Assembly (NCBI GenBank): GCA_022510765.1 | Contig: JAFLSU010000001.1 | Location: 70,551-134,550 of the forward strand | DNA from: Christensenellaceae bacterium | GTDB taxonomy: Bacteria > Bacillota > Clostridia > Christensenellales > CAG-138 | Direction: 5' to 3' | Length of the DNA: 64,000 nt | Shown: one piece after another, positions 6,535 to 64,000 of the stretch | Layout: the number at the start of each line of letters is the position of its first letter | How positions within the stretch are numbered: position 1 is the stretch's first letter | Made by a program: the position numbers and the translations under genes | The notes under the pieces: generated by a model | Database searches by the model: none | Seen by the model: only the letters and a program-made list of their open reading frames with translations | What the model was told of the DNA's origin: nothing

Positions 6535-7135
6535 CGTATACGACCTCCGACCCGAGCAGCCCTGCCAACAGGGTTCTTGCGCGCACAAGGCGCGATTTAA
6601 CGGTACCCTCACTGATACCCGTATTCTGTGAAATTTCACGAACGGTCATTTCGGAGAAGTAGTGCAGCAAAACGACCTCTTTATATATATCATCAAGCTT
6701 GTCTATTGCCTGACGAACGGCCATTCGCTGGAGCTTATCTTCGACCTCGATATCCGGCAGCGCGTCCGAATCTGCAACATCGTCTCCGAGCGGTTCATCT
6801 TTCAAAAGCTCCCGCGTAGATTTTCGCGTCGTGTCGAGCGCAAGGTTTGTGGAAACCTTGTAAAGCCATCCCTTAAGCTGCGCGTCGTTAAGCTCGGACA
6901 GCTTACCCATGTGGCGAATGACCTTCTCAAACACCGATTGGGTAATGTCCTCAGCCGTTTCACAATTGGATACGACCTTATACGCCGCCCAGTAGACGAG
7001 ACGTGAATAATCATTATAGATCATGTCGAAATTGCGCTCAGCCAATTCCCACTCTCCATTAATATAACGCACAACGCCGAACAACGGTTGCATTATTTTT
7101 AAAAAACATTGTATCGCCCGAAATCGCTTCTTCAA
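6524..7135 (-). CDS. ECF-type sigma-70 family RNA polymerase sigma factor
   Basis: It has a region 2 (YNDYSRLVYWAAYKVVSNCETAEDITQSVFEKV) and a region 4 HTH (LLHYFSEMTVREISQNTGISEGTVKSRLVRAR). The start codon is uncertain: TTG at 7135, ATG at 7093, or later. Confidence 0.85.
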   Translation of the reverse strand: MKKRFRAIQCFLKIMQPLFGVVRYINGEWELAERNFDMIYNDYSRLVYWAAYKVVSNCETAEDITQSVFEKVIRHMGKLSELNDAQLKGWLYKVSTNLALDTTRKSTRELLKDEPLGDDVADSDALPDIEVEDKLQRMAVRQAIDKLDDIYKEVVLLHYFSEMTVREISQNTGISEGTVKSRLVRARTLLAGLLGSEVVYDER

Positions 7136-7224
7136 GCGTATTCACGGTATTATACCATGCCCGCACTATGACAGGCAAACTTACGGTTTAATTTTAAAGA
7201 ATCGAAAACGATTCGTTCAATTTT

Positions 7225-8112
7225 TTAGTTCTCTCCACGTTCATGGATTATAAAATCGAAATAGCCTTCCATTCCGTCCTTCGTGCTTACGGTGATCTCG
7301 GCTGCACAGACGCTATCCATCGCGAACGCGAGTATCGCCGCGCCATACAGAATGACGTCATGGCGCTCTACAAGCAGCGGATTTCCCCTGCGCGCCGGCC
7401 CGAGATCGTGCAAATGCCCGATGAGATTCTCAACATCATCGCGGGTCAGAACCGAACCGTCCACGCGAGTCGAATCGAATTTATCAAGCCCGAGCTTGAG
7501 CGCGGCAAGCGTCGTTATGCTACCGCCCACGCCAGCGCACTTTGCGAGAATAAGCTTTGGAACACGCACTATGGAACGAATATACTCAGTAAGGGCTTCG
7601 CGCTGAAAAGACCAGTTATCATCGCAGTCCGCCGAACCCGTGCGCGCAAGCGCAATATCCTTTCCGCGCACACAGCCGATTGGATAGCTTATACCAAATC
7701 CTTCCGACATGATTTGCGTCGATGCTCCGCCTACGTCTATGAGCCCTCCGCCATGGGGCGCGGCGGCACGATAGGCATACTCTGCCTCCCTTTCGCCCGA
7801 AAGCACATCCGGCATCACTCCCGATGCGGCATACACGGCGGCAAGGAATTCATCACGATTGCTCGCATCACGCACCGCGCTCGTTGCATATGCAACGGGA
7901 TAATAGCCTGCATGTCTCGCATTTGCTGCAAGAGCTGCGATCACCGAAACGCTGCGCGCCATACTCTTTTGACTCAATCTGCCGCTGCTCGCAAGTCCGG
8001 AACCGAGGCGCGTGGTGATAACCTTCTTGTCCCCGCCCCCCTGCTCCATATAGCGTATCGAATTGGAGCCGATGTCTATAACCGCATACATGCTATGATT
8101 CACATTGCTCAT
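7225..8112 (-). CDS. Ppx/GppA-family phosphatase (exopolyphosphatase-like)
   Basis: YAVIDIGSNSIRYM is the phosphate-1 motif of the ASKHA fold, and DVGGAST is the second motif. The start is set at the second ATG (MSNVNH), which has GGAGG upstream. Confidence 0.85.
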   Translation of the reverse strand: MSNVNHSMYAVIDIGSNSIRYMEQGGGDKKVITTRLGSGLASSGRLSQKSMARSVSVIAALAANARHAGYYPVAYATSAVRDASNRDEFLAAVYAASGVMPDVLSGEREAEYAYRAAAPHGGGLIDVGGASTQIMSEGFGISYPIGCVRGKDIALARTGSADCDDNWSFQREALTEYIRSIVRVPKLILAKCAGVGGSITTLAALKLGLDKFDSTRVDGSVLTRDDVENLIGHLHDLGPARRGNPLLVERHDVILYGAAILAFAMDSVCAAEITVSTKDGMEGYFDFIIHERGEN

Positions 8113-22494: not shown

Positions 22495-25400
22495 TCAGCT
22501 ATTGGAAATGCGTTTTTTGCGGGAAATACTTCCGAGATTAAGCACGGCACCGGTTAACAGAAGCCCGCCCAAAAGATAGAATGGCAACGTGCCGATTCCA
22601 CCGGCAGCAGGGAGATCATATAAACTGGGTTTATCGCTCAATACCATGCTTTCCAAATTGTTTACATTTAACCATTTAATGTCAGGATATTGTTGCTCAA
22701 ATTCTTCAATCTCCTCATCACTAAAATAGAAATAATACTTGTTAGGATCAAGATAATAACCAGCCGGCGCAGTTAACTCTTGCAGATAATAAACCACATT
22801 CGGGGCCAAAATTATACCTTGATTAAAATTCGTACGGAACTCAAATATTCCCTCATCATTCGTCGTTCCTGTTGTAATTTCGTGACCGTCAGCACTATAT
22901 AAACCATACCTCGCACCAGGAAGCCTGGTCCACTCACTCGATCCGAGTCCCACACCTCTTTCATCAATTTTTTCGATTGTAAGATGTATTCTGTACCATA
23001 CAGAACCACTATCAATGTCCATCTCACCGTTAGTTTCAGATGAAACACCAAAATTAGAAAAGCGTAAGATTGCTATATTACCGTAATAAATTCGCCCAGT
23101 TTCTTCTTCATCGAATTCAATCATTACATCATATTTAATGGTATACTCATGAGCACCCGGTTGCTGCAAATAAATAGTTAGTACCCTTGTATCGTTATCC
23201 CATTCGTAGGTATAATCTTTTTCATAGGCCAGTCGCGTATTATCCTCATCAATAACCAACGACCCCAGAACAAAAAACATATTTTTCATTTCATCCACGA
23301 TTTTAAGCTTTGCTTCCTCGCCTTCGCCTACATACTCGCCCAAATTAACTTTGCCACCCTCATTAATAACGATGGTATAACTACCAAAGCAGCTTTCGTT
23401 ACCAGAAGGCGAGCTCGTCTCAGTCTTTTTAATTAGTTTAGGAATAGGTAGTTTTATCTCAGATCTAGCTGCCGTAGCAGTACCATTACGTAAACGTGCC
23501 TCATTAATATATTCATCTTCTGTACTATCCAAAATTTTAACTTCATCGTATGTACCCAGTCCATATGTATCTGTTGCATACGTTATTATCAAATCAGCAT
23601 CTTCCATTAAACTCCAATGTGTACACCAATCCTCTCCACCTTCGAGATTAAACTGATCCTTTAAACTATATCTACAATTCTCTTCTTTACGGTTTACTAA
23701 ATAAAGCCAACCTACCGAATTGCAATAATAAGCAATCGTATCATCTTCATTAGCATCACTTACCTCCGGTAACACAAAACTTTCCCCATCATATCGAATT
23801 GCAACACTAGCACCATTCAAACGCCAAGTATAAGTCGATTCATCACCCAATTTCTCTTGGTCAACTATATTCCACTGACCATAATTTAGCCCATTATACT
23901 TAGGAATCGACGCTGTAATCATAAAATGATACTTGCCATCGTTCAGGTCAAGCTTCCCTGTTTTCTTTATTTCTGGCTTCGTCAAGCTTTCTCCACCTTC
24001 AGATGGAATCTCAAAGTCAAAATTTAACCAAAATTCTACACCCATAGCATCACTTGAATTTTCTTCAAACGTAATAGCAAGCAGACCATCTTTCTCAACT
24101 ACATAAGTGCCAATAACATCATTGCCAAGCTTAACCTCGCCAGCAACCTTTCCTTTAATTTCAAAAACTTCTTTCGGAAGCTGGCAGGTATAGACGCCCG
24201 ATTGAAATCCGTTATGATCAGTCGAATAAATATACATTGAGAACTTGTACTTCCCGCCAGGATACATGTTATAATGCCCCTCGTCATCTGGGTATATTTC
24301 TACATTGTTTTGTTCGTCTATTTTCCAGATGATTTTGTAGTTAAACTTTCCTCCTATGGAACGAATATATTCTTCCAAATTTCTTCCCTCAACAACATCT
24401 GCCAACACAAACGGTGAAAAGTGGTCTGCTGTAAAAGTTACTTTCGTTACAACTCCATTCTCACCAGTCGCGATTTCTGCTTCCAGATTTTCTGGTGTCT
24501 CTTCATCCTGCAAGTGGAACAACTTCCAGTCACCCGTATTAATAAATTTTTCAACCGGTGTTTGGAACTCCAAGGACACTGTTACATTACCATTTAACTG
24601 CACCTCATCTCCATCTACATTCACGAAGGAAATATCATAAGGATAGATTGCCGCTAACGCGAGCATCATTCCTGGCTGCTCCGGTTGTTGCAAGGCATTT
24701 TGTAAGGCCTGTTTTATCTTATCCAGCTGTTCTTGATGTTCTTGACCCTCGATCTGACTCACTCGCAACGACGCACCCTCGGGCACCGCATTACCATTGT
24801 CATATACAGATACTGTCACATTACCAATATTAACGGTTAAGTCAGTGTCCTCATTAGTAATTGCGGGTACTTCTGAATTCTCATCGGAAGGTTTCGGCTG
24901 CTCCTCAGTAGGTTCATCCAACTCTACCTCACGGAAACAGCCGTCTCCGTGGACATGCTCATAAAGCACTGTTTTCTCGCAGATCAACTGACCATCCAAA
25001 TCGTAACAATTCTCCGGACTATGGGTATGCATCTCCAGCTCACCACAAATCAACATCCCTGTTTCATCGTAGCAGCTTTCCTGATGCTCGTGGGGTGCAA
25101 TTTCAGGCAGTTGGCAGAGCAGACTTCCTTCCTCGTCCCAACAACCTTCGGTATGTACGTGAACCACATAATCTGCTTCTCCGCAGATTAGCTGTTCCTC
25201 TTCGTCGTAACATTCAGTTCCATGCTCATGAACAATGAGAGGGCAGTCCAGCAGCAGATTGCTGCCTACCTCTGCATCGCCGCTTGAATCGATAAGGTTG
25301 TCATCATCATTCGGATCTTCCTCCGCCGCTATCTCCCGGAAACAGCCGTCCCCATGGATATGCTCATAAAGCACTGTTTTTTCACAGATCAACTGACCGT

Positions 25401-26157
25401 CCAGATCGTAGCAATTCTCCGGACTATGGGTATGCATCTCCAGCTTATCGCAAATCAATATCCCCATTTCATCGTAACAGCTCTCTTGATGCTCATGGGG
25501 TGCGATTTCAGGCAGTTGGCAGAGCAGGTTTCCGGTCTCATCCAAACAACCTTCGGTATGTATGTGAACCACATAATCTGCTTCTCCGCAGATCAGATTC
25601 TTCTCTTCGTCGTAACATTCCGGCCCATGCTCATGAACGCTGAGAGGACAGTCCAGCAACAGATTACTGCCTGCCTCTTCCTCTGCCTCATGGAAACATT
25701 CGTCTCCGTGGACGTGCTCAAAAAGTGCTATTTTTCCGCAGGTCAACTGACCGTCCGCGTCGTAACAATTCTCCGAACTATGCGTATGCAGCTCCAGCTC
25801 ACCACAAATCAACATCCCCGTTTCATCGTAACAGCTTTCCTGATGCTCATGGGGCGCGATTTCAGGCAGTTGGCAGACCAGGTTCCCCGCCTCGTCCCAA
25901 CAACCTTCGGCATGCGCGTGAATCACATAATCCGCTTCCCCACATATAAGCTGCTCCTCTTCGTCGTAGCATTCCGGCCCATGCTCATGAACGATGAGAG
26001 GGCAGTCCAGCAACAGGCTATTGCTTGCCGCCGAGAACCTTGGCAAAGTTATTATATAGACCAATGCCAGCATCATCGCCACCACGCGTATCCAAACGGA
26101 GCGCCCCTTGCGCTTTTTGGAGGACGCATTTTGCGCCTGATTTTCAAATTTCATCAT
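22495..26157 (-). CDS. Sortase-anchored cell-surface protein (adhesin-like) with an N-terminal Cys/His-rich tandem repeats and a C-terminal Cna-B/SpaA-type domain
   Basis: The start is at MMKFEN (GAAGGA RBS), giving 1,220 aa. A signal/TM segment (WIRVVAMMLALVYIITL) is followed by three repeats of about 120-135 aa. A Cna-B-like domain is present (LPGARYGLYSADGHEITTGTTNDEGIFEF...YYLQELTAPAGYYLD). The C-terminus has LPAAG, then the hydrophobic stretch GIGTLPFYLLGGLLLTGAVL, then a basic tail RKKR, which reads as an LPXTG-like sorting signal. Confidence 0.85.
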   Translation of the reverse strand: MMKFENQAQNASSKKRKGRSVWIRVVAMMLALVYIITLPRFSAASNSLLLDCPLIVHEHGPECYDEEEQLICGEADYVIHAHAEGCWDEAGNLVCQLPEIAPHEHQESCYDETGMLICGELELHTHSSENCYDADGQLTCGKIALFEHVHGDECFHEAEEEAGSNLLLDCPLSVHEHGPECYDEEKNLICGEADYVVHIHTEGCLDETGNLLCQLPEIAPHEHQESCYDEMGILICDKLEMHTHSPENCYDLDGQLICEKTVLYEHIHGDGCFREIAAEEDPNDDDNLIDSSGDAEVGSNLLLDCPLIVHEHGTECYDEEEQLICGEADYVVHVHTEGCWDEEGSLLCQLPEIAPHEHQESCYDETGMLICGELEMHTHSPENCYDLDGQLICEKTVLYEHVHGDGCFREVELDEPTEEQPKPSDENSEVPAITNEDTDLTVNIGNVTVSVYDNGNAVPEGASLRVSQIEGQEHQEQLDKIKQALQNALQQPEQPGMMLALAAIYPYDISFVNVDGDEVQLNGNVTVSLEFQTPVEKFINTGDWKLFHLQDEETPENLEAEIATGENGVVTKVTFTADHFSPFVLADVVEGRNLEEYIRSIGGKFNYKIIWKIDEQNNVEIYPDDEGHYNMYPGGKYKFSMYIYSTDHNGFQSGVYTCQLPKEVFEIKGKVAGEVKLGNDVIGTYVVEKDGLLAITFEENSSDAMGVEFWLNFDFEIPSEGGESLTKPEIKKTGKLDLNDGKYHFMITASIPKYNGLNYGQWNIVDQEKLGDESTYTWRLNGASVAIRYDGESFVLPEVSDANEDDTIAYYCNSVGWLYLVNRKEENCRYSLKDQFNLEGGEDWCTHWSLMEDADLIITYATDTYGLGTYDEVKILDSTEDEYINEARLRNGTATAARSEIKLPIPKLIKKTETSSPSGNESCFGSYTIVINEGGKVNLGEYVGEGEEAKLKIVDEMKNMFFVLGSLVIDEDNTRLAYEKDYTYEWDNDTRVLTIYLQQPGAHEYTIKYDVMIEFDEEETGRIYYGNIAILRFSNFGVSSETNGEMDIDSGSVWYRIHLTIEKIDERGVGLGSSEWTRLPGARYGLYSADGHEITTGTTNDEGIFEFRTNFNQGIILAPNVVYYLQELTAPAGYYLDPNKYYFYFSDEEIEEFEQQYPDIKWLNVNNLESMVLSDKPSLYDLPAAGGIGTLPFYLLGGLLLTGAVLNLGSISRKKRISNS
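24922..26025 (-). repeat. Three tandem coding repeats (about 357-405 nt units) in the adhesin gene
   Basis: Protein units begin near residues 69, 188 and 323 of the long ORF (SNLLLDCPL..). They are near-identical at the protein level. The mirror ORFs at 24949-25191 and 25354-26190 on the plus strand reflect the DNA repetition. Confidence 0.9.
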
Positions 26158-26304
26158 GACGGTGTTCCTTCTTTCTTTAAAACAATTTAACAAAGCCATA
26201 TCAACGTTCTTCATCCGTATATTTCTCAAAATATATGAGAAAATAATATCGGGTGAGGAAGCGGCGGCTTCGTCTGTCGTCTGCTTTGATGATTGAGGCA
26301 GAAT

Positions 26305-26326
26305 ATTTCGCAGAGTTCTTCACTCT
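26305..26326. repeat. Inverted repeat, left arm (ATTTCGCAGAGTTCTTCACTCT)
   Basis: It is the exact reverse complement of 27743-27764 (22 of 22). Confidence 0.95.
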
Positions 26327-26337
26327 GCACATTCAGC

Positions 26338-26366
26338 ATTATAGCATAAGTGCTTGGCTTTTGCAA
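26338..26366 (-). promoter_or_regulatory. Near-consensus outward-facing promoter inside the IR-bounded segment, directed at the adhesin gene
   Basis: On the minus strand, TTGCAA (26366-26361) is followed by the 17-nt spacer AAGCCAAGCACTTATGC and TATAAT (26343-26338). It lies 11 nt inside IR-L, and transcription would run through IR-L to the ATG at 26157. Confidence 0.55.
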
Positions 26367-26547
26367 GAGGGTTCACAAAAAAGCCACTTATATTTTTGGC
26401 TTTTCTTCATGATGAGATACGAATTATGAGATTTTTCCATTGAGAGACAGCGATTATCGGAGCAATCGCCGTCAAAGCCGCCGTCATACGAGAGTAAATT
26501 CGCACCGCTGAAATAATAGATAAAATCTTCAAAAGGAGGACATTATT

Positions 26548-27666
26548 ATGTCAAGGAAAGGCGAAAACATTTACAAGCGTAAAGACAACCGCTGGGAGGC
26601 ACGGTATATCAAGGGTTACACAGCGGAAGGAATCATTCGTTATGGCTATTGCTATGCAGCAACGTATCGAGAAGTAAAAGAAAAGGTGACGGCCGCAAAG
26701 GCTGCCTTGATGAATAATCTCACTCCGGAACCAGTGAGCATCAGACGTCGGTTCGGTCTTTACTGCGACGAATGGCTCCGATTGAATCGCAGTCGTGTCA
26801 AGGAATCCACTTATGTCAAGTATATAACGAACATAGAAAATCATATTAAACCAAAGCTCGGCGGGTGCTTTGTGCAGGGGCTTTCTTCACTGATTGTTGA
26901 GGAATTCAGCCATGATTTGCTTTATGAAAAGGAATTATCCCCAAAAACAGTTCGGGACATTTTGATGCTTCTTCATGCTATTCTCAAATATACGCAGAAA
27001 CAGGTGCCGAATATGCCTTTGGTAGAAGTGGTCTATCCAAAGGACATAAAAAAGGAAATGAGGGTATTAAGCCGAGACGAACAAACGCGCTTGGTTCAAT
27101 ATCTGCTTTTAGATATGGACGAATGTAAATTTGGCGTATTGCTTGCGCTGCTGACCGGACTGCGGATAGGTGAAGTATGCGCACTGCGCTGGCGGGATGT
27201 CTCTTTGACAGACAAGCTGATGTGCGTTTCTTCTACTATGCAGCGACTTAAAAATCTCGATGAGAATGCACAGCAAAAAACAAAAATTATCATCAGCAAT
27301 CCAAAAAGCAACACATCTGCCCGACAGATCCCATTGACCGATTATACCGTGAAGCTCTGTAAAGTCTGGGAGGTTCGTGATCCCTCTGCGTTTGTTCTTA
27401 CGGGAGAGACTGACCGCTATATTGAGCCTCGCACATTGCAGTATCGCTTAGAGCGCTATACCAAGGATTGCGATCTTTCCGGTGTCCATTTTCATGTGAT
27501 GCGACACACTTTCGCTACCCGATGTGTTGAGGTTGGTTTTGAAATTAAGTCCCTTTCCGAAATCTTAGGTCACACAAGTCCGAAGTTCACGCTAGAGCGG
27601 TACGTTCATTCTTCTTTGGAGTTGAAGCGTGACAACATGAGCAAGCTGGGGGCTATCGGTTACTGA
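26548..27666 (+). CDS. Tyrosine-type site-specific recombinase/integrase with an N-terminal AP2-like arm-binding domain
   Basis: 372 aa with an AAGGAGG RBS. The N-terminus is ENIYKRKDNRWEARYIKGY...YGYCYAATYREV (Tn916-Int-like arm-binding pattern). The catalytic set is TGLRIGEVCALRW (R), HVMRHTFAT (H-x-x-R) and LGHTSPKFTLERYVH (H...Y). Confidence 0.9.
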   Translation: MSRKGENIYKRKDNRWEARYIKGYTAEGIIRYGYCYAATYREVKEKVTAAKAALMNNLTPEPVSIRRRFGLYCDEWLRLNRSRVKESTYVKYITNIENHIKPKLGGCFVQGLSSLIVEEFSHDLLYEKELSPKTVRDILMLLHAILKYTQKQVPNMPLVEVVYPKDIKKEMRVLSRDEQTRLVQYLLLDMDECKFGVLLALLTGLRIGEVCALRWRDVSLTDKLMCVSSTMQRLKNLDENAQQKTKIIISNPKSNTSARQIPLTDYTVKLCKVWEVRDPSAFVLTGETDRYIEPRTLQYRLERYTKDCDLSGVHFHVMRHTFATRCVEVGFEIKSLSEILGHTSPKFTLERYVHSSLELKRDNMSKLGAIGY

Positions 27667-31901: not shown

Positions 31902-32807
31902 CTATACGATTTTCCTCACATAGTTTTTGAACCCATCGCTCCGATACCAAGTCGGTATTGGGTTTTCCATGTGATTATGCCAAATCAGAATCTCTCTTGC
32001 TTGATCGAGCATGGTATTTATTTCGTTTTCTCCAAATGGTATCGCCCAATAAACGGATGAAAGCGTATTGCTTGAAATATAGAGTGCAAGCAGTTTCCAA
32101 AACTCAATCGGAACATTTCCGTCAAAATAGCCATCGACCATGCCCGAAGCAAACAAGTGGGATCTCTGCGCGCACCATACGATACGATTGAACTCCTCCC
32201 ATGGATCACCGTAATCATTGCGATTGAAGTCGATTATTTGAAGATGTCCGTCTGCATCTATCATCATGTTTCCGATATGGTAATCACCATGCTGATAAAC
32301 CTGCGGGCGATTTTTAATTAAATGTCTGTTTGAATCTATATAGTTTATAAAGGCTTCGCCGCCCTCATACTTTATCGGACATTCATTATACCTCTTGATT
32401 TTGTTATCCATCTTGCGATTGAATCGAATTTCCCAATCCTCCTGAGTTTCGGGCGCAGGTATGGAATGTATTTTCTTGAGGATTTGTCCCGCCTCAATTC
32501 CATAGGAATACTGCTGTGCGGCAGGGAGGAATGGAATAAGTTCTTCAGCGTCTACGCCATCTATCCAGCTCTGAATGGAGTATACGCCCTCGTCCGAAAC
32601 TCCGAATTCTATAGGCTTGCACATCGGAACGCCAAGTTTCGCCACCTCTTTCATCATATTAAATTCAAGCAGTTTGGCATCGTACTCCACGGGTGCCGAT
32701 ATGCACAAAAGGTATTTTACTCCCGTACCATCGGTCACGCAGTACTTCTTATCCTTCGACCAGCCTTTGTTGATAGGCTCCTTCTTAGTAAAGCTCAATT
32801 CACTCAT
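31902..32807 (-). CDS. Phosphotransferase enzyme family protein (APH/choline-kinase fold)
   Basis: The start is at MSELSF (GGGAG RBS). It has the catalytic loop YQHGDYHIGNMMID and the DFN metal-binding motif (IIDFNRNDYGDPWEEF). The substrate cannot be told from the sequence. Confidence 0.75.
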   Translation of the reverse strand: MSELSFTKKEPINKGWSKDKKYCVTDGTGVKYLLCISAPVEYDAKLLEFNMMKEVAKLGVPMCKPIEFGVSDEGVYSIQSWIDGVDAEELIPFLPAAQQYSYGIEAGQILKKIHSIPAPETQEDWEIRFNRKMDNKIKRYNECPIKYEGGEAFINYIDSNRHLIKNRPQVYQHGDYHIGNMMIDADGHLQIIDFNRNDYGDPWEEFNRIVWCAQRSHLFASGMVDGYFDGNVPIEFWKLLALYISSNTLSSVYWAIPFGENEINTMLDQAREILIWHNHMENPIPTWYRSDGFKNYVRKIV

Positions 32808-33000
32808 CCGTTGCTCCCACCTAAGGCGCATATTTGTTATAAATGAACAAATTCATTATAACATGATTGGAATAAATCTGTACAGTATGATTTTCCGCTC
32901 GGCTTCACCCATGGGATACATCGGGTTTAGCTCCGCTTGACAAAATCAAGCGTTTGGGATAACGTTATGAAAACTTTTATTGAGAAAGGCGCTGCATCGC

Positions 33001-33633: not shown

Positions 33634-36048
33634 ATGTACCGTGTAGTTAAAAGGGACAATACGATCGTAGATTTCGATCTGTCCAAAATTAAGAACGCCA
33701 TGCTCCTCGCCTTCGAGGCGCAGGAGAAGCCCTGCCATCCCGACATACTCGACCTTCTGGCTCTCAAGGTCACGGCGGATTTTTCCGCCAAGGTCAAGGA
33801 TGAGCTTATCGCCGTTGAGGATATCCAGGACAGCGTGGAGTCCGTCCTCATCCAGGCGGGCTATGCCGACATCGCCAAGGCATACATCCTCTATCGCCGT
33901 CAGCGCGAAAAGCTGCGCAATATGAAAAGCACATTCCTCGACTACCGCGATACCGTTAACAAGTACGTTAACGTTACCGATTGGCGCGTCAAGGAGAATT
34001 CAACCGTCACCTATTCCGTCGGCGGTCTTATCCTTTCCAACAGCGGCGCAATCACCGCTAACTATTGGCTCTCCGAAGTATATGACGACGAGGTCGCCAA
34101 TGCCCACCGCAACTGCGACTTCCATCTGCATGACCTGTCGATGCTGACGGGCTACTGCGCGGGATGGTCGCTCCGTCAGCTCCTCGAGGAGGGTCTGAGC
34201 GGCGTTGCGGGCAAGATCACCTCGTCCCCCGCAAAGCATCTGTCCACACTCTGCAACCAGATGGTCAATTTCCTCGGCATCATGCAGAACGAATGGGCGG
34301 GCGCGCAGGCGTTCAGCTCCTTCGATACCTACCTTGCGCCCTTCGTAAGAACCGATGGGCTTACCTATGATCAGGTAAAGAAGTGCATCGAAAGCTTCAT
34401 TTACGGTGTCAACACCCCGTCCCGTTGGGGCACCCAAGCGCCTTTCTCCAACATCACTCTCGATTGGACGGTTCCCGATGACCTCAGGGATCGCCCCGCC
34501 ATCGTCGGCGGCAAGCCCATGGATTTTACCTACGGCGACTGCAAAAAAGAGATGGATATGATAAACAAGGCGTTCATCGAGACCATGCTCGAGGGCGATG
34601 CCCACGGACGCGGATTCCAATATCCCATCCCCACCTACTCCATAACCAAGGATTTCGATTGGTCCCCCACCGAGAACAATCGTCTGCTCTTTGAAATGAC
34701 AGCAAAGTACGGCACTCCGTATTTTTCCAATTATGTGAACAGCGATATGGAGCCGAGCGATATACGTTCCATGTGCTGCCGTCTCCGTCTTGACCTTCGC
34801 GAGCTGCGCAAAAAGAGCGGCGGTTTCTTCGGCAGCGGCGAAAGCACCGGCAGCGTCGGCGTGGTAACTCTCAACATGCCCAGGCTTGCATATCTTTCCG
34901 AAAACGAGGAAGAATTCTTTACAAGGCTTAACAGGCTGATGGACATTGCGGCGCGCTCCCTTCATGTAAAGCGTACCGTCATCACCCGCCTTCTGGAGGA
35001 GGGTCTGTATCCTTACACCAAGCGCTATCTCGGCTCGTTCGACAATCATTTTTCGACCATCGGGCTTGTCGGCATGAACGAAGCATGCCTGAACGCAAAG
35101 TGGATAGGCAAGAATCTGTCCAACACCGACGCGCAGGAATTTACAAAGAGGGTACTCAACCACATGCGCACTCGCCTTGCCGACTATCAGGAGATCTACG
35201 AGGGCGAACTGTTTAACCTCGAGGCGACCCCTGCGGAATCCACCACCTACCGCTTCGCCAAATACGATGTCGCACACTTCCCGGGCATCATCACGGCGGC
35301 GGAGGCCGGCGGAACGCCGTACTACACCAACAGCTCTCATCTGCCCGTCGGCTACACGGAAGATATTTTCTCCGCACTCGACATTCAGGATGAGCTGCAA
35401 ACGCTTTACACCTCGGGTACGGTATTCCATACCTTCCTCGGGGAGAAGCTGCCCTCCTGGCAGAGCGCGGCGACGCTCGTGCGCAAGATCGCAGAGAATT
35501 ATAAGCTTCCTTATTATACTATGTCCCCCACCTACTCCGTCTGCAAGAACCATGGCTATCTCACAGGAGAACAGCATATTTGCCCGCACTGCGGACGCCA
35601 GACGGAGGTTTACAGCCGCATAACCGGCTACTACCGTCCGATTCAGAACTGGAACGATGGCAAGGTGCAGGAGTTTAAGGAGCGCAAGGTCTACAGCATA
35701 CTCGACTACAAGGAGCATAAGCAGAAGCTCTCCGAAAACAGTGCGTCCGAGAGTGAAAGCGCGGCTGCGGAATCCGTCGCGACTGACTCCACCCCGATTA
35801 CTTCATTGATGCTTTTCACCACGAAGACCTGTCCCAATTGCAGCACGGCGACCAGCATCCTTGATAGGGCCGGGATTCCCTTCGTGAAGATGGACGCTGA
35901 GGAAAATCCCGAACTTGCCATTCGGTATGAACTCCGTCAGGCTCCCACGCTCGTTATAACAAACGGCGACAGCTTCGAAAAGTATGTTGGTGTAGGCTCC
36001 ATCAATAGTTACGTCCAAAGCATAAATAAGGAGACGGTCAACGCATAA
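33634..36048 (+). CDS. nrdD: Anaerobic ribonucleoside-triphosphate reductase (class III, NrdD) with a C-terminal fused thioredoxin/glutaredoxin-like domain
   Basis: 804 aa. It has an N-terminal ATP-cone (YRVVKRDNTIVDFDLSKIKNAM), a C-terminal Zn site and glycyl-radical motif (CPHCGRQTEVYSRITGYYRP), then a 114-aa extension. The extension is a Ser/Glu/Ala linker followed by LMLFTTKTCPNCSTATSILDRAGIPFVKMD...APTLVI (CxxC thioredoxin fold). Confidence 0.9.
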   Translation: MYRVVKRDNTIVDFDLSKIKNAMLLAFEAQEKPCHPDILDLLALKVTADFSAKVKDELIAVEDIQDSVESVLIQAGYADIAKAYILYRRQREKLRNMKSTFLDYRDTVNKYVNVTDWRVKENSTVTYSVGGLILSNSGAITANYWLSEVYDDEVANAHRNCDFHLHDLSMLTGYCAGWSLRQLLEEGLSGVAGKITSSPAKHLSTLCNQMVNFLGIMQNEWAGAQAFSSFDTYLAPFVRTDGLTYDQVKKCIESFIYGVNTPSRWGTQAPFSNITLDWTVPDDLRDRPAIVGGKPMDFTYGDCKKEMDMINKAFIETMLEGDAHGRGFQYPIPTYSITKDFDWSPTENNRLLFEMTAKYGTPYFSNYVNSDMEPSDIRSMCCRLRLDLRELRKKSGGFFGSGESTGSVGVVTLNMPRLAYLSENEEEFFTRLNRLMDIAARSLHVKRTVITRLLEEGLYPYTKRYLGSFDNHFSTIGLVGMNEACLNAKWIGKNLSNTDAQEFTKRVLNHMRTRLADYQEIYEGELFNLEATPAESTTYRFAKYDVAHFPGIITAAEAGGTPYYTNSSHLPVGYTEDIFSALDIQDELQTLYTSGTVFHTFLGEKLPSWQSAATLVRKIAENYKLPYYTMSPTYSVCKNHGYLTGEQHICPHCGRQTEVYSRITGYYRPIQNWNDGKVQEFKERKVYSILDYKEHKQKLSENSASESESAAAESVATDSTPITSLMLFTTKTCPNCSTATSILDRAGIPFVKMDAEENPELAIRYELRQAPTLVITNGDSFEKYVGVGSINSYVQSINKETVNA

Positions 36049-43006: not shown

Positions 43007-43897
43007 ATGAATGATACCGAGCTGAAGTACATATTGGAACGAATCGATCCGAGCATTGAATGTCGCGTCACCTCATTTACAAGATTCAAGCATGAGGAGG
43101 ATGACGAGCTTTACGATGTTTGGAAGGTCGAAACGCCCGACGCAAGCTTCGTGCTGAAATGCGCTAATGAGTGCGAATTTGAAGCCTATAAAAGCTTTTT
43201 TGAGGCGAATCCCTGCTATGCGCCAAAGCTTTTTGGGACTACGGCGTATGATGGTAAAAGCTTTATCCTGATTGAATACATTGATGGCGAAAACCTTGTT
43301 CGCTGCCGTAGGGAATCCCTTCGAGCTGCGCTTGACGCACTCATCAAAATGCAGTCCGATTATTGGGAAAATGCTGAATTTGCATCATGCTGTCAATCCT
43401 TTGACAAGGCACTTGCACATTGCCAAAACCGAGCTAAGTATCTGTTCGATGCCGAATTGGAGAGAGTCTATGCGGAGTTTCTTCGCATCTATCAGGAAAT
43501 TCCCCGAACCCTTTGCCATAATGATCTATTGCCGTTCAACGTGATCGTGGAAAACGAAAAACGCGCTGCGTTCATCGATTGGGAGGTCTGCGGCATACTG
43601 CCCTACCCCGCCTCGCTTGCAAGATTGCTTGCGCACGGAGCGGATGATGGGAGCAGCATGTTCGAGATTGTAGGTTCCGATAGGGAGTTTGCAATCAGGC
43701 ACTACTATGATGGATTATTGGCGGAAAAAGGCATTGGTTATGAAGAATACAGGAGGACGCTTGCCTATTTCATGTTCTACGAATACTGCGAATGGGTGTA
43801 CGTTGGGAATAGGTTCGATGCGACCGATGGCGACAATTACAAACGCTATTTCAAGCTTGCGAAAGCCGCTGCGGAGCTGTTGCTGCAAAAAACTTGA
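43007..43897 (+). CDS. Phosphotransferase family protein (APH/ChoK fold)
   Basis: 296 aa with the catalytic loop LCHNDLLPFNVIV and FIDWEVCG (a DxE/D metal site). Confidence 0.7.
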   Translation: MNDTELKYILERIDPSIECRVTSFTRFKHEEDDELYDVWKVETPDASFVLKCANECEFEAYKSFFEANPCYAPKLFGTTAYDGKSFILIEYIDGENLVRCRRESLRAALDALIKMQSDYWENAEFASCCQSFDKALAHCQNRAKYLFDAELERVYAEFLRIYQEIPRTLCHNDLLPFNVIVENEKRAAFIDWEVCGILPYPASLARLLAHGADDGSSMFEIVGSDREFAIRHYYDGLLAEKGIGYEEYRRTLAYFMFYEYCEWVYVGNRFDATDGDNYKRYFKLAKAAAELLLQKT

Positions 43898-43925
43898 TTA
43901 GAAAAAATGTGCGGAGGAATTGAAA

Positions 43926-44558
43926 ATGGACGGTAAAACCATATGGTCTGTTGCGAGTGCCATTATAGTCAGCCTCGGCGGTGCGGGTGTGATAATAAGC
44001 GCAGTGCTGGGCTTTACGTTTCGCTTTGTCGTAAACCGCATGGAAAAGAATTATCAGCAGCGACAGTCCAAGGAGCTTGAAAAATATCGCTATTTGCTTG
44101 AAAACCACCGATATATCACCAAATCTCAATACGACAGAGAGTTTGAGATCTATCGATTGCTATCCAAGCATTTCTTCATGCTGCTTGTTGTGCTTTACAC
44201 CTTCACATCCGAATACATAGATTGTAAAATACCCGGTACAAGCACCGAACTGGATGAAAAAACTGCGGAATTTCAGCATTTAGCAAAGGTCTTGACCGAT
44301 GCTCAGAGTGTGCTTTATGAAAACGCTCCGTTCATCCCGCAAAACATTTTTACACAATATGTTGATATATATTGGAAATCAAATGAATTGTTCTGGGTCT
44401 ATAATAACCGAATTAAGGACTGGTCGCTTGGCAAAATAGGAAGGGACGACCTTGTGACTGAGGAGGAGCAAAGCAAGTTTTCCGAAATTGAAAAGGAAGC
44501 GGAAGCTTTGACCATCGAGCTCCGAAATTATCTTTCCTCTTTGGCGGTTGCAGAATAG
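43926..44558 (+). CDS. Hypothetical membrane-anchored protein
   Basis: GGAGGA lies 7 nt before the ATG. It has a single N-terminal TM helix (VASAIIVSLGGAGVIISAVLGF) and I recognised no domain. The stretch is locally AT-rich. Confidence 0.5.
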   Translation: MDGKTIWSVASAIIVSLGGAGVIISAVLGFTFRFVVNRMEKNYQQRQSKELEKYRYLLENHRYITKSQYDREFEIYRLLSKHFFMLLVVLYTFTSEYIDCKIPGTSTELDEKTAEFQHLAKVLTDAQSVLYENAPFIPQNIFTQYVDIYWKSNELFWVYNNRIKDWSLGKIGRDDLVTEEEQSKFSEIEKEAEALTIELRNYLSSLAVAE

Positions 44559-44648: not shown

Positions 44649-45365
44649 TTAATCCAGAATATAGGTATCGTAGGAATCCTCATCGCGGGTACAGAAAAAA
44701 GCCTTTAATTCCATCGCGGACGGGTCACAATCATCGCACTCAAAAGCAATGCTATCATATCGGGTCAACATCCGTGAAAGTAGTGCCTGCGCAAAGCTGT
44801 GAAAATCAGATTGACTGACCGTACCCACATAAGCTATCTCATTCCCCTCGGTGAAAGCAAAGTGAACGATTTCGCCATTCTCCTCTCGAAGCAGTACCGT
44901 GCCAGGCAGAGTGTTGTAGAACTGTTCCTTGCTTGCCGTTAATGGACTGACCGCTTCATGGGTTTTAACATAGCTATTATAAAGTAATTCACAGCATACC
45001 CGGTAGGCTGTATCGCTCGGCAGAATCTCGGTCAATAGAACATCTTCTTTTACAGAAGTTTTAAGTTCCGCAGCCGTTACTTCCATTTCATAGCACCGAC
45101 GCTTGCGCTCAAAGCCGCCGGAAGTCAAAAAAGCACATTTCTCCTCATCCCGCGAATGGAGCATTGCCTGTAATGGACAGGCAAGTTCTCCGCTCAGCAG
45201 CTCAAAAAGCTCCCTTGCGATTGCGGGATCATACTGCTCAAGGTTCAAATCCAAATAACAATTCTGTGCATGAAAGGGATTGCGGCGAACTGAAATGCAG
45301 CCGATCCTTACACCCGAATTAAAAAACTCATAACTGTGGCCAAGCTGACGCACTATGGATACCAT
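44649..45365 (-). CDS. Hypothetical protein, possibly an acyl-CoA N-acyltransferase (GNAT-like) fold
   Basis: 238 aa. The only hints are GNAT-like strand/helix endings (..AFLTSGGFERKRRCYEMEV.. and ..ECDDCDPSAMELKAFF..). It is co-directional with the SDR and AOS genes. Confidence 0.35.
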   Translation of the reverse strand: MVSIVRQLGHSYEFFNSGVRIGCISVRRNPFHAQNCYLDLNLEQYDPAIARELFELLSGELACPLQAMLHSRDEEKCAFLTSGGFERKRRCYEMEVTAAELKTSVKEDVLLTEILPSDTAYRVCCELLYNSYVKTHEAVSPLTASKEQFYNTLPGTVLLREENGEIVHFAFTEGNEIAYVGTVSQSDFHSFAQALLSRMLTRYDSIAFECDDCDPSAMELKAFFCTRDEDSYDTYILD

Positions 45366-45425
45366 CGGAAGTCCTCCGTTATCAAGAAAGCTCCATTGCT
45401 CTCATCAAATCTATTAAGGAAGGCA

Positions 45426-46220
45426 TCAGCCGTTTGCGTACATTTTGCCAACTATCCAGTTGGAAAGCCTGCTTGGAAGGATTTTCCCAAGCAAACAGCA
45501 CGCGCTGTACTGAATTCCAACGGAGCTAACGGGCTTCGGATTCTTTTGCTTTGAAAGGGCGTACATACGTTTAGCGATCGCAATGGGGGGCATTCCGTTT
45601 CGCTCGTCATGCTCCATCGTGGCAACGGATTTTTGGAGTGCGGAATAACTGTCCGCGCCCTGATCGCTCTTTATTCTTGCATCGGTAAAGCCCGTCTTTA
45701 TATCCCCGGGGAGCACGGCGGCAACCTTTACCCCATACGACCGAACCTCGTTCGCAAGCGCAAGCACTAAGGAATTGAGTGCGGCCTTGGTTGCGGAATA
45801 GTAGGCTTGGAACGGTATTGCAAGCGCACCCGCGACGGAGCTTGTGACTATGATGTGCCCCCTTCCCCGCTCACGCATATGCGGCAGCGCAGCCTTTATG
45901 CAGTTCATCGTGCCGAACACGTTGACATCGAATTGCTTTTTAGCGTCGCTCATTTCGGTGAACTCCACCGCGCCGGAGATCCCGAAGCCCGCGTTGCAGA
46001 TGAGCACATCGATTTTGCCTTCTTTGAGCACTATGGAATCGATGGCATTCTGGACGGCGGATTCGCTTGTAATGTCGGCTGTCAGGCTCCTGACACCGCT
46101 TTCGGGACAGGTTCGTCTGCTGATGCCGAAGACGATGTCTCCCTTATCTTTGAAAAATTTTGCGGCAGCAAGTCCAATTCCGCTCGATGCGCCTGTAATG
46201 ACCGTAACCCTTTTATTCAT
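45426..46220 (-). CDS. Short-chain dehydrogenase/reductase (classical SDR)
   Basis: 264 aa with TGASSGIG, NAG and the catalytic S...YSATK. Confidence 0.9.
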   Translation of the reverse strand: MNKRVTVITGASSGIGLAAAKFFKDKGDIVFGISRRTCPESGVRSLTADITSESAVQNAIDSIVLKEGKIDVLICNAGFGISGAVEFTEMSDAKKQFDVNVFGTMNCIKAALPHMRERGRGHIIVTSSVAGALAIPFQAYYSATKAALNSLVLALANEVRSYGVKVAAVLPGDIKTGFTDARIKSDQGADSYSALQKSVATMEHDERNGMPPIAIAKRMYALSKQKNPKPVSSVGIQYSACCLLGKILPSRLSNWIVGKMYANG

Positions 46221-46247
46221 ACGCCTTTTCCGATTTGCTCGACCAAG

Positions 46248-47417
46248 CTATTCTTCCGATACTATTCTCTTTATAATATCCATCGCCTCATCCAAAAGCT
46301 CCGTGGTGAGATTTGCCATATAGCTTGTTCGGAGCAGGCACTCTCCCGGAGGCGTAGCCGGCGGAAGCACCGGGTTTACATATACGCCCGCGTCATAAAG
46401 CTCCTTGGCCTTACGCAGGGTGCGCATTTGATCATATGTGTAGATGGGTATTATAGGGGTGATGCTGTCACGGATCTTTACGCCCCGCGCACGAAGTCCA
46501 TCTCGCATATATGCAGCAAGCGACATCAGCTTTTCGGGCAGCTCTGGATTATCGCGCAGAATATGGAGCGCTTCTATCGCCGTTGCGCAGTTTGCTGGCG
46601 GTATCGAAGCACAGAAAATGAACGGGCGGGAGCTGTGTCGAACATAGTTCACGACCCTTTCATCGCCCGCCATGTAGCCGCCGAGGGAAGCCAGGGATTT
46701 GCTGAAGGTTCCCATGATTATATCGACCTTGTCGGTAAGTCCGAAATAATCCGCAGTTCCCCTGCCGCCTCTTCCGAGTACGCCGAGACCGTGCGCATCG
46801 TCAACCATGACCCTCGCCTTGTACTTTTCCGCTAGCGCAACTATCTCGGGGAGCTTACAAATGTCGCCGCTCATGCTGAAAACGCCGTCGGTAACGATGA
46901 GTTTGCCCGAATCAATGGGGACGCTGGCAAGTGCGGTCTCAAGCTGTTCCATATCGCTGTGGTTATAGCGGATGGTCTTTGCGTAGCTCAGCTTGCAACC
47001 GTCATAGATGCTTGCATGATTTTCCTTATCGCAGAAAATATAATCGCCCCTGCCCGCGATCGCGCTGATGATGCCAAGGTTGCTTTGGAAACCCGTAGAG
47101 AACGTCATAACTGCTTCCTTTTCAAGGAATTCCGCAAGCTCTGCTTCGAGCTGAATATGCATATCGAGCGTTCCGTTCAAGAAGCGGGAACCGGAGCAGC
47201 CCGAGCCGTATTTTTCGATCGCGCGAACGCCAGCTTCAATGACTCTGGGATCGGACGTAAGTCCAAGGTAATTGTTCGAGCCGAGCATGATGCGCCGCAT
47301 ACCCTCCATGACGACCTCAGGCCCCTGCCGTGATTCCAACTGATGAAAATAAGGATAGATGTCCTGCGCCTTCGCCGCTTCGACGAGCTCCACCCTGCAT
47401 TTTTCAAATAAATCCAT
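46248..47417 (-). CDS. Alpha-oxoamine synthase family PLP enzyme, most similar in pattern to serine palmitoyltransferase
   Basis: The start is at MDLFEK (TGGAGA RBS). It contains SNNYLGL, DDAHGLG and the PLP-lysine GTFSKSL. The C-terminal YVNPVLPPATPPGECLLRTSYMANLT resembles the Sphingomonas SPT sequence YVNMARPPATPAGTFLLRCSL more than E. coli Kbl or BioF, from my recollection of those sequences. Confidence 0.85.
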   Translation of the reverse strand: MDLFEKCRVELVEAAKAQDIYPYFHQLESRQGPEVVMEGMRRIMLGSNNYLGLTSDPRVIEAGVRAIEKYGSGCSGSRFLNGTLDMHIQLEAELAEFLEKEAVMTFSTGFQSNLGIISAIAGRGDYIFCDKENHASIYDGCKLSYAKTIRYNHSDMEQLETALASVPIDSGKLIVTDGVFSMSGDICKLPEIVALAEKYKARVMVDDAHGLGVLGRGGRGTADYFGLTDKVDIIMGTFSKSLASLGGYMAGDERVVNYVRHSSRPFIFCASIPPANCATAIEALHILRDNPELPEKLMSLAAYMRDGLRARGVKIRDSITPIIPIYTYDQMRTLRKAKELYDAGVYVNPVLPPATPPGECLLRTSYMANLTTELLDEAMDIIKRIVSEE

Positions 47418-47632
47418 ATAAATCTCCAAATAAACAAACTGTTAACCATGTTAACTGAGTATATAAAAATTTTAATATTTTTTTGCAAAGATGTCAAGCC
47501 ATGGAAGTCGTAATTGGGAATTCACTGCAACTTATATATCACCGAATAACGCCTCATTCACTTGCCACCTTAGGCGCAATATAGTAAAATATGGGATGAA
47601 CGAAGAAAAACTCTTTCGGAGGTAAAAATATT

Positions 47633-63523: not shown

Positions 63524-64000
63524 TTAATTTATCTCCTGTTTCTTCAGCATAGAGAGCAGCCCGTCATAAAAAGCAGGGTGCTCACAAGTTAAACTGCATA
63601 TGATAACCGATTTTGTGAGATCATAAAGCAGATTTAGCATTTGGGCGATGTCTTGAGTAACGATTGAAAAATCATTACCTTCATTGCTATAGCTGCAATC
63701 GGCTTCATTCAATATGGTTTGCGCCTGTATTGCATTATCTACATTGATTGTGCAATGGCAGTATTCATTCCGAACCTCTTCGGGACGGCCTGAAAAAATT
63801 ACGGAGCCTTTTTGAAGCACGACAAGCTTCGTACAAAGCTTTTTTACCTCAGATATATCGTGCGATGACAAGAGGATTGCACAGCCCCTTTTCTGTTCAT
63901 CGAGTATAAGCTGCCAAATATGTTCTTTTGTCACGACATCAACCATGCTCGTCACTTCATCCATGACGAGGTTCGTTGCGTCCTGTACCAACATGCAGCC
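63524..64000 (-). CDS. ABC transporter ATP-binding protein (5' end outside the window)
   Basis: The ORF is open to the window edge. It has a Walker B/D-loop (LVMDEVTSMVD), an H-loop (LLSSHD) and a roughly 90-aa C-terminal accessory domain. Confidence 0.8.
   Translation of the reverse strand, partial: GCMLVQDATNLVMDEVTSMVDVVTKEHIWQLILDEQKRGCAILLSSHDISEVKKLCTKLVVLQKGSVIFSGRPEEVRNEYCHCTINVDNAIQAQTILNEADCSYSNEGNDFSIVTQDIAQMLNLLYDLTKSVIICSLTCEHPAFYDGLLSMLKKQEIN

Follow-up and report, generated by a model that had tools for sequence, protein, structure and literature searches.

A putative two-gene operon resembling spt-kdsR in a clade of gut and rumen Clostridia

Introduction

The bacterial sphingolipids detected so far were, according to a 2023 review, largely limited to Bacteroidota and some Alphaproteobacteria (PMC10191378), and their production in the gut is now attributed to Bacteroidota, i.e., Bacteroides, Prevotella, Porphyromonas and their relatives. 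In Caulobacter the serine palmitoyltransferase (Spt, SPT) is followed by the ceramide synthase bCerS and then by the reductase CerR (PMC11087976), whereas KdsR of Bacteroides thetaiotaomicron represents an order in which reduction comes first (PMC9278070). The in vivo relevance of the KdsR-type route is still debated (PMC11087976). The ketocapnine reductases of Alistipes, which belong to the related sulfonolipid chemistry, are scattered (PMC11211663). Here we describe two adjacent genes, one for an alpha-oxoamine synthase (AOS) and one for a short-chain dehydrogenase/reductase (SDR), in a 64,000-nt stretch of DNA from a Christensenellaceae bacterium (assembly GCA_022510765.1, contig JAFLSU010000001.1, positions 70,551 to 134,550), referred to below as the window. 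They probably constitute a two-gene operon resembling spt-kdsR, in which the AOS and then the SDR would make a sphinganine-type long-chain base.

The locus was first noticed in a prediction made from the DNA alone, which described three co-directional genes on the minus strand with gaps of 27–60 bp (AOS, SDR and a gene for a 238-aa protein) as a candidate sphingoid- or capnoid-base pathway. We recovered the same coordinates and gaps, 27 bp between AOS and SDR and 60 bp between SDR and the 238-aa gene.

Results

Conservation of the AOS-SDR Pair

One genome per GTDB species was scanned for related AOS genes. This gave 80 loci with AOS proteins 64–86% identical, 79 of which could be evaluated for the SDR. 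An SDR homolog lies directly downstream of the AOS gene and in the same direction in 56 of these 79 loci, at a median distance of about 23 bp; both genes even overlap, by 8 nt, on a metagenomic chromosome of 2.44 Mb. As the arrangement recurs in this many species genomes with otherwise different flanks, the adjacency is far beyond chance. Clustering of all neighboring open reading frames (ORFs) of the related AOS loci revealed no other widely conserved neighbor. The conserved unit is a two-gene module, not a trio.

Family Placement of the Synthase

The best NCBIfam model for the AOS was SerpalmtaseCFB, which describes Bacteroidota-type SPT. None of the curated cut-offs of the SPT models NF047600 (520 vs. 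640 bits), NF047599 (397 vs. 500 bits) and NF047603 (332 vs. 670 bits) was reached; the beta-proteobacterial SPT model gave 397 bits and the Kbl and BioF models about 380–387 bits. The other AOS proteins of the clade that were tested scored 511–567 bits, all below the SPT cut-off of 640. In the PDB the best sequence match was the SPT of Sphingobacterium multivorum (SmSPT, 417 bits), followed by the Sphingomonas SPTs (∼299), a Thermus BioF/Kbl (260), Kbl (∼240), the SulA/CFAT cysteate acyltransferases (229–238), BioF (<200), bacterial ALAS (∼172–183) and CqsA (103). The AOS is 49.7% identical to SmSPT, with which it shares its length and aligns without gaps over 378 residues, 36.5% identical to E. 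coli Kbl (EcKbl) and 30.9% identical to E. coli BioF (EcBioF). A neighbor-joining (NJ) tree was built from 21 clade members, SmSPT, EcKbl and EcBioF (SulA, HemA and CqsA were not part of it), and the clade and SmSPT stood apart from EcKbl and EcBioF in 200 of 200 bootstraps.

Scores, identities and tree together place the AOS with the SPT-type alpha-oxoamine synthases rather than with Kbl or BioF. The original prediction had already set it nearer to SPT, pointing among other things to the C-terminal segment YVNPVLPPATPPGECLLRTSYMANLT, which is indeed present in the AOS translation, and the firm clustering within Kbl or BioF that would have spoken against it was not observed.

That the AOS is nevertheless a housekeeping enzyme, i.e., Kbl of threonine/glycine metabolism or BioF of biotin synthesis, with the SDR as an unrelated or accessory dehydrogenase, is highly improbable. 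Some homologs have been annotated automatically as 8-amino-7-oxononanoate synthase (JGI), the AOS falls, in proportion, no further short of the BioF and Kbl cut-offs than of the SPT cut-off (381 of 426 and 382 of 460 bits, compared with 520 of 640), and an SPT-like enzyme from Nostoc provides a precedent (PMC8895605). The identities, the 200 bootstraps and the PDB scores (<200 bits for BioF and ∼240 for Kbl, compared with 417 for SPT) nonetheless all favor SPT. The neighborhood does not fit either: bioA/B/D/W and threonine dehydrogenase (tdh), which had earlier been noted as missing next to the three genes, were not found anywhere in the 64-kb window by Pfam scans of all ORFs of at least 110 aa (the partial ORF at 63524–63994 excepted), and no recurrent neighbor of this kind is seen in the related loci. 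Moreover, the SDR is a 264-aa classical SDR and not a zinc-dependent alcohol dehydrogenase or an epimerase-like Tdh. Kbl or BioF identity of the AOS was rejected on the basis of the sequence identities and the NJ tree.

Active Site of the Synthase

The active site was compared with that of SmSPT at 17 positions in the AOS and 76 relatives, using the SmSPT numbering of PMC10196870. The AOS agrees with SmSPT at 16 of the 17 positions, and all 17 are invariant in the relatives. The residues that are both identical and invariant include SmSPT Asn52, Gly80, Ser81, Phe83, Leu84, His138, Ser185, Asp210, Ala212, His213, Thr241, Ser243, Lys244, Phe272, and Arg367. The AOS thus has the equipment of a fold-type-I pyridoxal phosphate (PLP) enzyme, with a Schiff-base Lys (Lys240, SmSPT Lys244), a stacking His (His134, SmSPT His138), the PLP-holding Asp206 and His209 (SmSPT Asp210 and His213) and a carboxylate-binding Arg (Arg363, SmSPT Arg367). 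The only mismatch is SmSPT Met271, which is replaced by Ile throughout the clade.

The C-terminal segment mentioned above contains the acyl-tunnel motif, which reads PATP at AOS residues 353–356 and varies between PAT, PAC, and PAV in the clade. Human SPTLC2 has PATP at the corresponding place, whereas the enzymes of Bacteroides and Prevotella have PACA (PMC10865984).

Lys281 of SulA, located 30 residues after the Schiff-base Lys, has been proposed to separate cysteate acyltransferases from SPTs (PMC9304779). This position is Ala in the AOS (Ala270), as is typical of Spt, and in 76 of 76 relatives. It bears directly on the capnoid half of the original prediction, in which the pair would correspond to SulA/CapB and the 3-ketocapnine reductase CapC and make capnine-type sulfonolipid bases. 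The combination of an AOS with an SDR is shared with capnine synthesis (PMC10191378, PMC11211663), and the SulA and CFAT structures are recognizable homologs (229–238 bits). Yet SulA scores far below SPT, the Lys that defines SulA is missing (PMC9304779), and neither cysteate synthase nor further lipid-pathway genes were found in the window by the Pfam scans. The chance that the pair makes capnine-type bases is therefore close to negligible, and the sulfonolipid candidate was set aside as largely refuted by the Lys281 position. The SPT-type AOS and the KdsR-like SDR support the sphingoid half of the prediction and not the capnoid half.

The active-site residues, to which the prediction had pointed as a guide to the substrate, thus agree with SmSPT, including the Ala in place of SulA Lys281. 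Because most of them are common to AOS enzymes in general, they make serine a compatible substrate without proving it. The same AOS-reductase chemistry could also act on alanine, glycine or another amino acid and/or on short or unusual acyl groups to give a non-canonical amino alcohol, which we regard as unlikely. The possible products, for example a 1-deoxy-sphingoid base or a small amino alcohol that serves as a metabolite or signal, are unlikely to the same degree. In favor of such substrates, the clade stands apart from every characterized SPT with all tested members below the SPT cut-off, its conserved residues are largely AOS-generic with Ile for Met271 throughout, SmSPT itself takes Ala and Gly at low efficiency (PMC10196870), and bacterial 1-deoxy-ceramides have been reported from the Black Sea (PMC11334938). 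On the other hand, the serine contacts Asn52, Gly80/Ser81, and Ser243 are unchanged, the acyl-tunnel motif is SPT-like, Met271 touches the substrate via its main chain (PMC10196870), and the nearest characterized enzyme, at ≈50% identity, is a genuine SPT.

The KdsR-Like Reductase

The best of 230 NCBIfam matches for the SDR was KdsR (NF049977), which aligned end-to-end with 226 bits, below the cut-off of 400; its relatives score 224–239 bits against the same model. All 48 family members compared have the cofactor motif TGxxxGIG (residues 9–16), Ser128, Tyr141, and Lys145, and also Arg35, which follows strand β2. An Arg in this place is typical of SDRs that prefer NADPH. In agreement with the first description of the gene as a classical SDR, which the Pfam match confirms (Table 1), the conserved residues indicate a catalytically intact enzyme of this type. 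We predict that it is an NADPH-dependent 3-ketosphinganine reductase, its action on 3-ketosphinganine following from the conserved linkage to an SPT-like gene in 56 of 79 loci. The ketoreductase named in the original prediction was the epimerase-type CerR. The SDR found here is instead a KdsR-type classical SDR, which implies that reduction would precede any acylation.

Since AOS and SDR both fall below the NCBI curated cut-offs, each would belong to a distinct clade outside the characterized families in the strict sense, the AOS clade being sister to canonical Bacteroidota SPT.

Proposed Function

We infer the following substrates and product for the pair. The AOS would form an external aldimine with L-serine and condense it with a long-chain acyl-ACP (acyl carrier protein) or acyl-CoA (coenzyme A), releasing CO2 and giving an amino-ketone of the 3-ketosphinganine type. 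The SDR would then use NADPH to reduce the 3-keto group, which would yield a long-chain base of the sphinganine type. Reduction would thus come first, as in eukaryotes and with the Bacteroides KdsR, and not after acylation as in the Caulobacter order, where CerR acts last. The long-chain base may stay free or may be N-acylated by an unlinked enzyme.

Several points weigh against this assignment. The AOS, the SDR and all tested relatives miss the curated equivalog cut-offs, and the lead of KdsR over the next model, a generic SDR model, is small (226 vs. 204 bits). As noted, most of the conserved active-site residues are generic to AOS enzymes and are compatible with serine without demonstrating specificity. 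Among SDRs, the reduction of 3-keto groups is a promiscuous activity (PMC11211663), and the function given here to the SDR therefore rests mainly on synteny, with an adjacent SDR missing from 23 of 79 loci. The SPT-like AOS of Nostoc makes no 3-ketodihydrosphingosine, although that enzyme clustered with BioF (PMC8895605). Finally, the Pfam scans of the window yielded neither a ceramide synthase nor an ACP nor any other gene for sphingolipids, and every carrier found is a metagenome-assembled genome (MAG) or an uncultured genome.

The 238-aa Tandem-GNAT Protein

The third gene of the original prediction encodes a protein for which no match was obtained in Pfam, in NCBIfam or by sequence in the PDB. 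An AlphaFold model computed from 39 homologs reached a pLDDT of 95.5 and a pTM of 0.88. Foldseek matched this model to tandem GNAT proteins, the best being VipF (4e-11), with MAB_4324, MshD, a clavulanate tandem GNAT, Eis-like proteins and the long-chain N-myristoyltransferases (E about 1e-6) among the others; E-values ranged from 4e-11 to 1e-6 and TM-scores from about 0.55 to 0.63. The model thus indicates a tandem-GNAT fold, at the fold level only. The faint GNAT-like features noticed earlier were correct at this level, and the fold is not an unrelated one. Sequence profiles, a kind of search that had also been suggested, gave no family match in Pfam or NCBIfam, and the GNAT relationship comes from the structure.

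The family, to which the homologs P0001–P0120 and P0241–P0386 belong, is small, with 384 representatives among 1.84 billion proteins, and mostly standalone. Fusions to a canonical GNAT domain occur in P0247 and P0270, and P0383 contains a PRiA4_ORF3 domain in addition. The invariant features of the family are His32, Gln66, Arg89, Cys91, Tyr132, His136, the motif FECDDCD, and a C-terminal DTY. By eye, the canonical Q/RxxGxG/A CoA-binding motif is not visible in either half, so it is uncertain whether the protein is catalytically competent.

The gene is present in none of the 80 related AOS loci. Conversely, neither AOS nor SDR was found near a homolog in any of 37 loci beyond the nearest relative. 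Among the homolog loci, five found by exact protein look-up (58–61% and 52% identical) fall into four unrelated contexts, and a further 30 from metagenomes lack both AOS and SDR in their vicinity. Apart from the window, the arrangement of three genes was seen only in the nearest relative (L117/L118), in which the AOS is 98% and the 238-aa protein 85% identical. The 238-aa gene was therefore rejected as a conserved partner from both directions, and it is an incidental, lineage-specific neighbor outside the conserved module. The homologs often have neighbors of an accessory or detoxification type, such as APH kinases, ABC-F proteins, MarR-MFS pairs and methyltransferases, and in other cases a peptidase or ribosomal genes. 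Our best guess is that the protein N-acylates small molecules, or is a GNAT-like partner of an enzyme that does so, and that it has nothing to do with lipid synthesis.

Another acyltransferase taking the place of the 238-aa gene after the SDR was also considered, and none occurs at that position in the related loci. In half of these loci the gene after the SDR is read from the other strand. The co-directional genes at this position encode ECF sigma factors, lipoproteins, ABC ATPases, ApbE, GpsA, DegT, PadR or a TonB-dependent receptor. In L116 the pair is followed by a gene for a 207-aa protein, which is unrelated to the 238-aa protein and has no Pfam match.

The original model of a three-gene ceramide pathway would make the 238-aa protein a ceramide synthase analog recruited locally in the window lineage. 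The three genes are co-directional with short gaps, each has its own Shine-Dalgarno sequence, no convincing terminator separates them, the tandem-GNAT fold has long-chain N-myristoyltransferases among its matches, and the nearest relative has kept the arrangement. Still, we find this model very unlikely in view of the counts of 0 of 80 and 0 of 37 loci, the lack of any kind of acyltransferase at the equivalent position elsewhere, the lack of a CoA-binding motif visible by eye, and the lack of a Pfam or NCBIfam acyltransferase match. Because the gene is not conserved and the position holds no acyltransferase elsewhere, no support was found for the third reaction of the prediction, N-acylation by a ceramide synthase.

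Two phosphotransferases of the APH family (aminoglycoside/choline-kinase-like) were observed in the window, under entries with the coordinates 43007–43897 (+), 43920–44558 (+), and 31902–32831 (−). One APH gene and a gene for a 212-aa protein without a family match converge on the 238-aa gene. The APH gene beside it also accompanies the 238-aa gene in L117 and is found in none of the 80 AOS loci.

Distribution of the Pair

Nearly all carriers are MAGs or uncultured Clostridia from the guts of humans, ruminants, chickens and horses and from anaerobic digesters. Their labels include Christensenellaceae Phil7, Clostridium sp. CAG:138, Oscillospiraceae, Lachnospiraceae, Acutalibacteraceae, and Butyricicoccaceae. 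Outside the Clostridia we found one Spirochaetales MAG and six Paludibacteraceae/Bacteroidales MAGs (L061, L065, L069, L071, L072, and L076). The AOS proteins of these six are 64–66% identical to that of the window, with the AOS match at about 6001–7164 in most of the loci, and Paludibacteraceae AOS proteins score 511–514 bits, below the Bacteroidota SPT cut-off of 640. Together with their SDR, the Paludibacteraceae copies form one group nested in the Clostridia radiation of an NJ tree without support values on its internal nodes. One of the pairs is flanked by a TonB-dependent receptor, so the locus is genuinely from Bacteroidales. These relationships suggest that AOS and SDR were transferred as a pair from Clostridia into rumen Bacteroidales (Paludibacteraceae).

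On this basis we tentatively propose that a large, hitherto unrecognized clade of monoderm gut and rumen Clostridia makes sphinganine-type bases by means of a self-contained two-gene operon without a linked ceramide synthase. It might be a second, overlooked source of sphingoids in the guts of animals, mobile to rumen Paludibacteraceae. Its members, to be named with the same reserve, would be the CAG-138/Christensenellales-like lineages, Oscillospiraceae, Lachnospiraceae and others.

Some of the loci deviate from the common arrangement. L024 (contig CAVFGM010000111.1) is labeled Bacteroidaceae, and its gene order is near-identical to that of the Oscillospiraceae loci L019, L021, L025, and L028. 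It is probably mis-binned, as the AOS and its flanks both follow this order. These five loci form a subclade without an SDR, in which a convergent gene for a 467-aa GT4 glycosyltransferase lies downstream of the AOS. In a second subclade without an SDR (L052, L054, L058, L059, and L060), an EamA transporter gene and a diaminopimelate-dehydrogenase-like gene are co-directional with the AOS. Such subclades with other fixed neighbors may represent variant pathways built on the same AOS.

Regulator genes were seen next to some AOS genes. Nine mostly Oscillospiraceae-type loci (L015, L022, L030, L034, L036, L038, L044, L045, and L050) have a small MarR-family regulator directly upstream and co-directional, and a GntR regulator (7048–7845) is divergent from the AOS in L116. 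A regulator of this kind is absent from the window.

Locus Layout and Other Window Features

The AOS start codon is preceded by a GGAG Shine-Dalgarno sequence, and the ORF list contains an alternative TTG start at 47429. The upstream promoter (Table 1) was the top-scoring site in the scanned region. As seven promoter-like sites were found in this region compared with 5.4 expected from shuffled sequences, i.e., no more than in the shuffles, it should be read as a consensus match only. The hairpin scan revealed no convincing terminator between the AOS, SDR and 238-aa genes. The only hairpins nearby, at 45512–45496 on the gene strand and 45521–45538 on the other strand, both fall within the 3′-terminal part of the SDR gene; hairpins of this kind occur no more often than in shuffled sequence. 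We infer that AOS and SDR are co-transcribed, possibly together with the 238-aa gene in the window organism.

Table 1. Coordinates of the genes and of the predicted promoter at the AOS-SDR locus (positions in the window).
Feature	Position	Strand	Description
AOS gene	46248–47417	−	389 aa from ATG; PF00155, 1e-56
SDR gene	45426–46220	−	264 aa; PF00106, 2e-42
238-aa tandem-GNAT-fold gene, orphan family	44649–45365	−	Fold-level match; lineage-specific neighbor
Sigma-70-like promoter	47469–47497	−	TTGACA-17-TAAAAT, 11/12 matches, ∼50 bp upstream of the AOS ATG

The remaining window is an ordinary Clostridia chromosome, with genes for Rho, a sporulation/germination protein, MreB, MurG, PFOR, NrdD, and ptb/buk. 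The region 22495–27666 contains an ORF of 1244 aa that resembles surface proteins and has a SpaA prealbumin-like domain; it sits in the stretch with the lowest GC content and the most negative GC skew (GC 0.41 at 22–24 kb) and is followed by a tyrosine integrase (26548–27666). This region may be an integrated element. NrdD (33634–36048, +; 804 aa) has a C-terminal glutaredoxin/thioredoxin-like domain at residues ∼725–797 in addition to its ATP-cone.

Discussion

Sphingoid synthesis was regarded as unusual for Clostridia in the original prediction, and the present host is a Clostridia member. A Black Sea survey extended Spt-like genes to 40 phyla, and no mention of Firmicutes was found in its text and supplements. 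Our literature search turned up no publication on SPT-like genes or sphingoid lipids from Clostridia. The distribution paper by Stankeviciute and co-workers from 2022 is said to give Actinobacteria as its Gram-positive examples. Three points appear to be new, namely the occurrence in a broad group of monoderm Clostridia, the tight, conserved spt-kdsR operon, and the absence of a linked ceramide synthase. The recent metagenomic work on Spt-like genes makes a wide distribution less surprising.

If the assignment is true, studies of host-microbe sphingolipid exchange miss a producer group, which includes lineages related to Christensenellaceae and Oscillospiraceae. Such lineages are often associated with the metabolic state of the host. 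The clade members tested (the window, L003, L019, L052, L065–L067, and L071) fall below the SPT and KdsR cut-offs, and their annotation is either generic or, at JGI, 8-amino-7-oxononanoate synthase. When "spt" is counted in metagenomes by means of a broad orthologous group such as COG0156, which PMC12816596 used, the counts cannot separate the genes of this clade from Kbl or BioF. The conserved operon would also provide independent genomic support for a KdsR-type, reduce-first route in bacteria, and the pair is a compact two-gene cassette suited to a direct test in E. coli.

Comparison With Known Systems

As judged from their sequences, AOS and SDR are recognizable relatives of known SPT and KdsR, and it is with these that the locus compares best. 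The 238-aa protein resembles tandem-GNAT acyltransferases (VipF of Legionella, MAB_4324 of M. abscessus, the mycothiol synthase MshD, Eis-like proteins and N-myristoyltransferase) in that its model shows two GNAT-like halves in one chain. It differs from them in being shorter (238 aa compared with 290–390 aa) and only 10–15% identical, in having no Pfam GNAT match and no obvious CoA-binding glycine motif, and in having its own set of invariant residues.

The sulfonolipid pathway of Bacteroidota (SulA/CapB and CapC) shares the sequence of an AOS reaction and an SDR keto-reduction with the pair. It is set apart by the diagnostic Lys281, which is Ala here, by the much lower similarity of the AOS to SulA than to SPT, and by the cysteate synthase, which is absent from the window.

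With the Caulobacter pathway (Spt, bCerS, CerR) the pair shares the first step, an SPT-type AOS, and the same presumed aim of a sphingoid lipid. Neither bCerS nor an epimerase-like CerR is present in the window or beside the pair in any related locus, and no dedicated ACP or acyl-ACP synthetase lies near the pair. The reductase belongs to the KdsR type rather than the CerR type, so the steps would follow one another in a different order.

The closest counterparts are found in Bacteroidota. Like SmSPT (PDB 3A2B and 8GUH) and Bacteroidota SPTs such as BT_0870, the AOS would be a soluble, homodimer-type enzyme, and it has the same length. It shares with SmSPT the PLP- and substrate-contacting residues, the Spt-type Ala 30 residues after the Schiff-base Lys, and the SPT-type acyl-tunnel motif. 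Unlike these enzymes, the clade scores only 511–567 bits against a cut-off of 640, is centered on monoderm Clostridia and has Ile for Met271. The SDR resembles B. thetaiotaomicron KdsR (BT_0972; PMC9278070) as a classical SDR of ∼265 aa with TGxxxGxG and the Ser-Tyr-Lys residues, while it reaches only 226 bits against the KdsR cut-off of 400. Whereas spt (BT_0870) and kdsR (BT_0972) of Bacteroides have distant locus tags, the two genes of the Clostridia pair are adjacent, and this adjacency is conserved across dozens of species.

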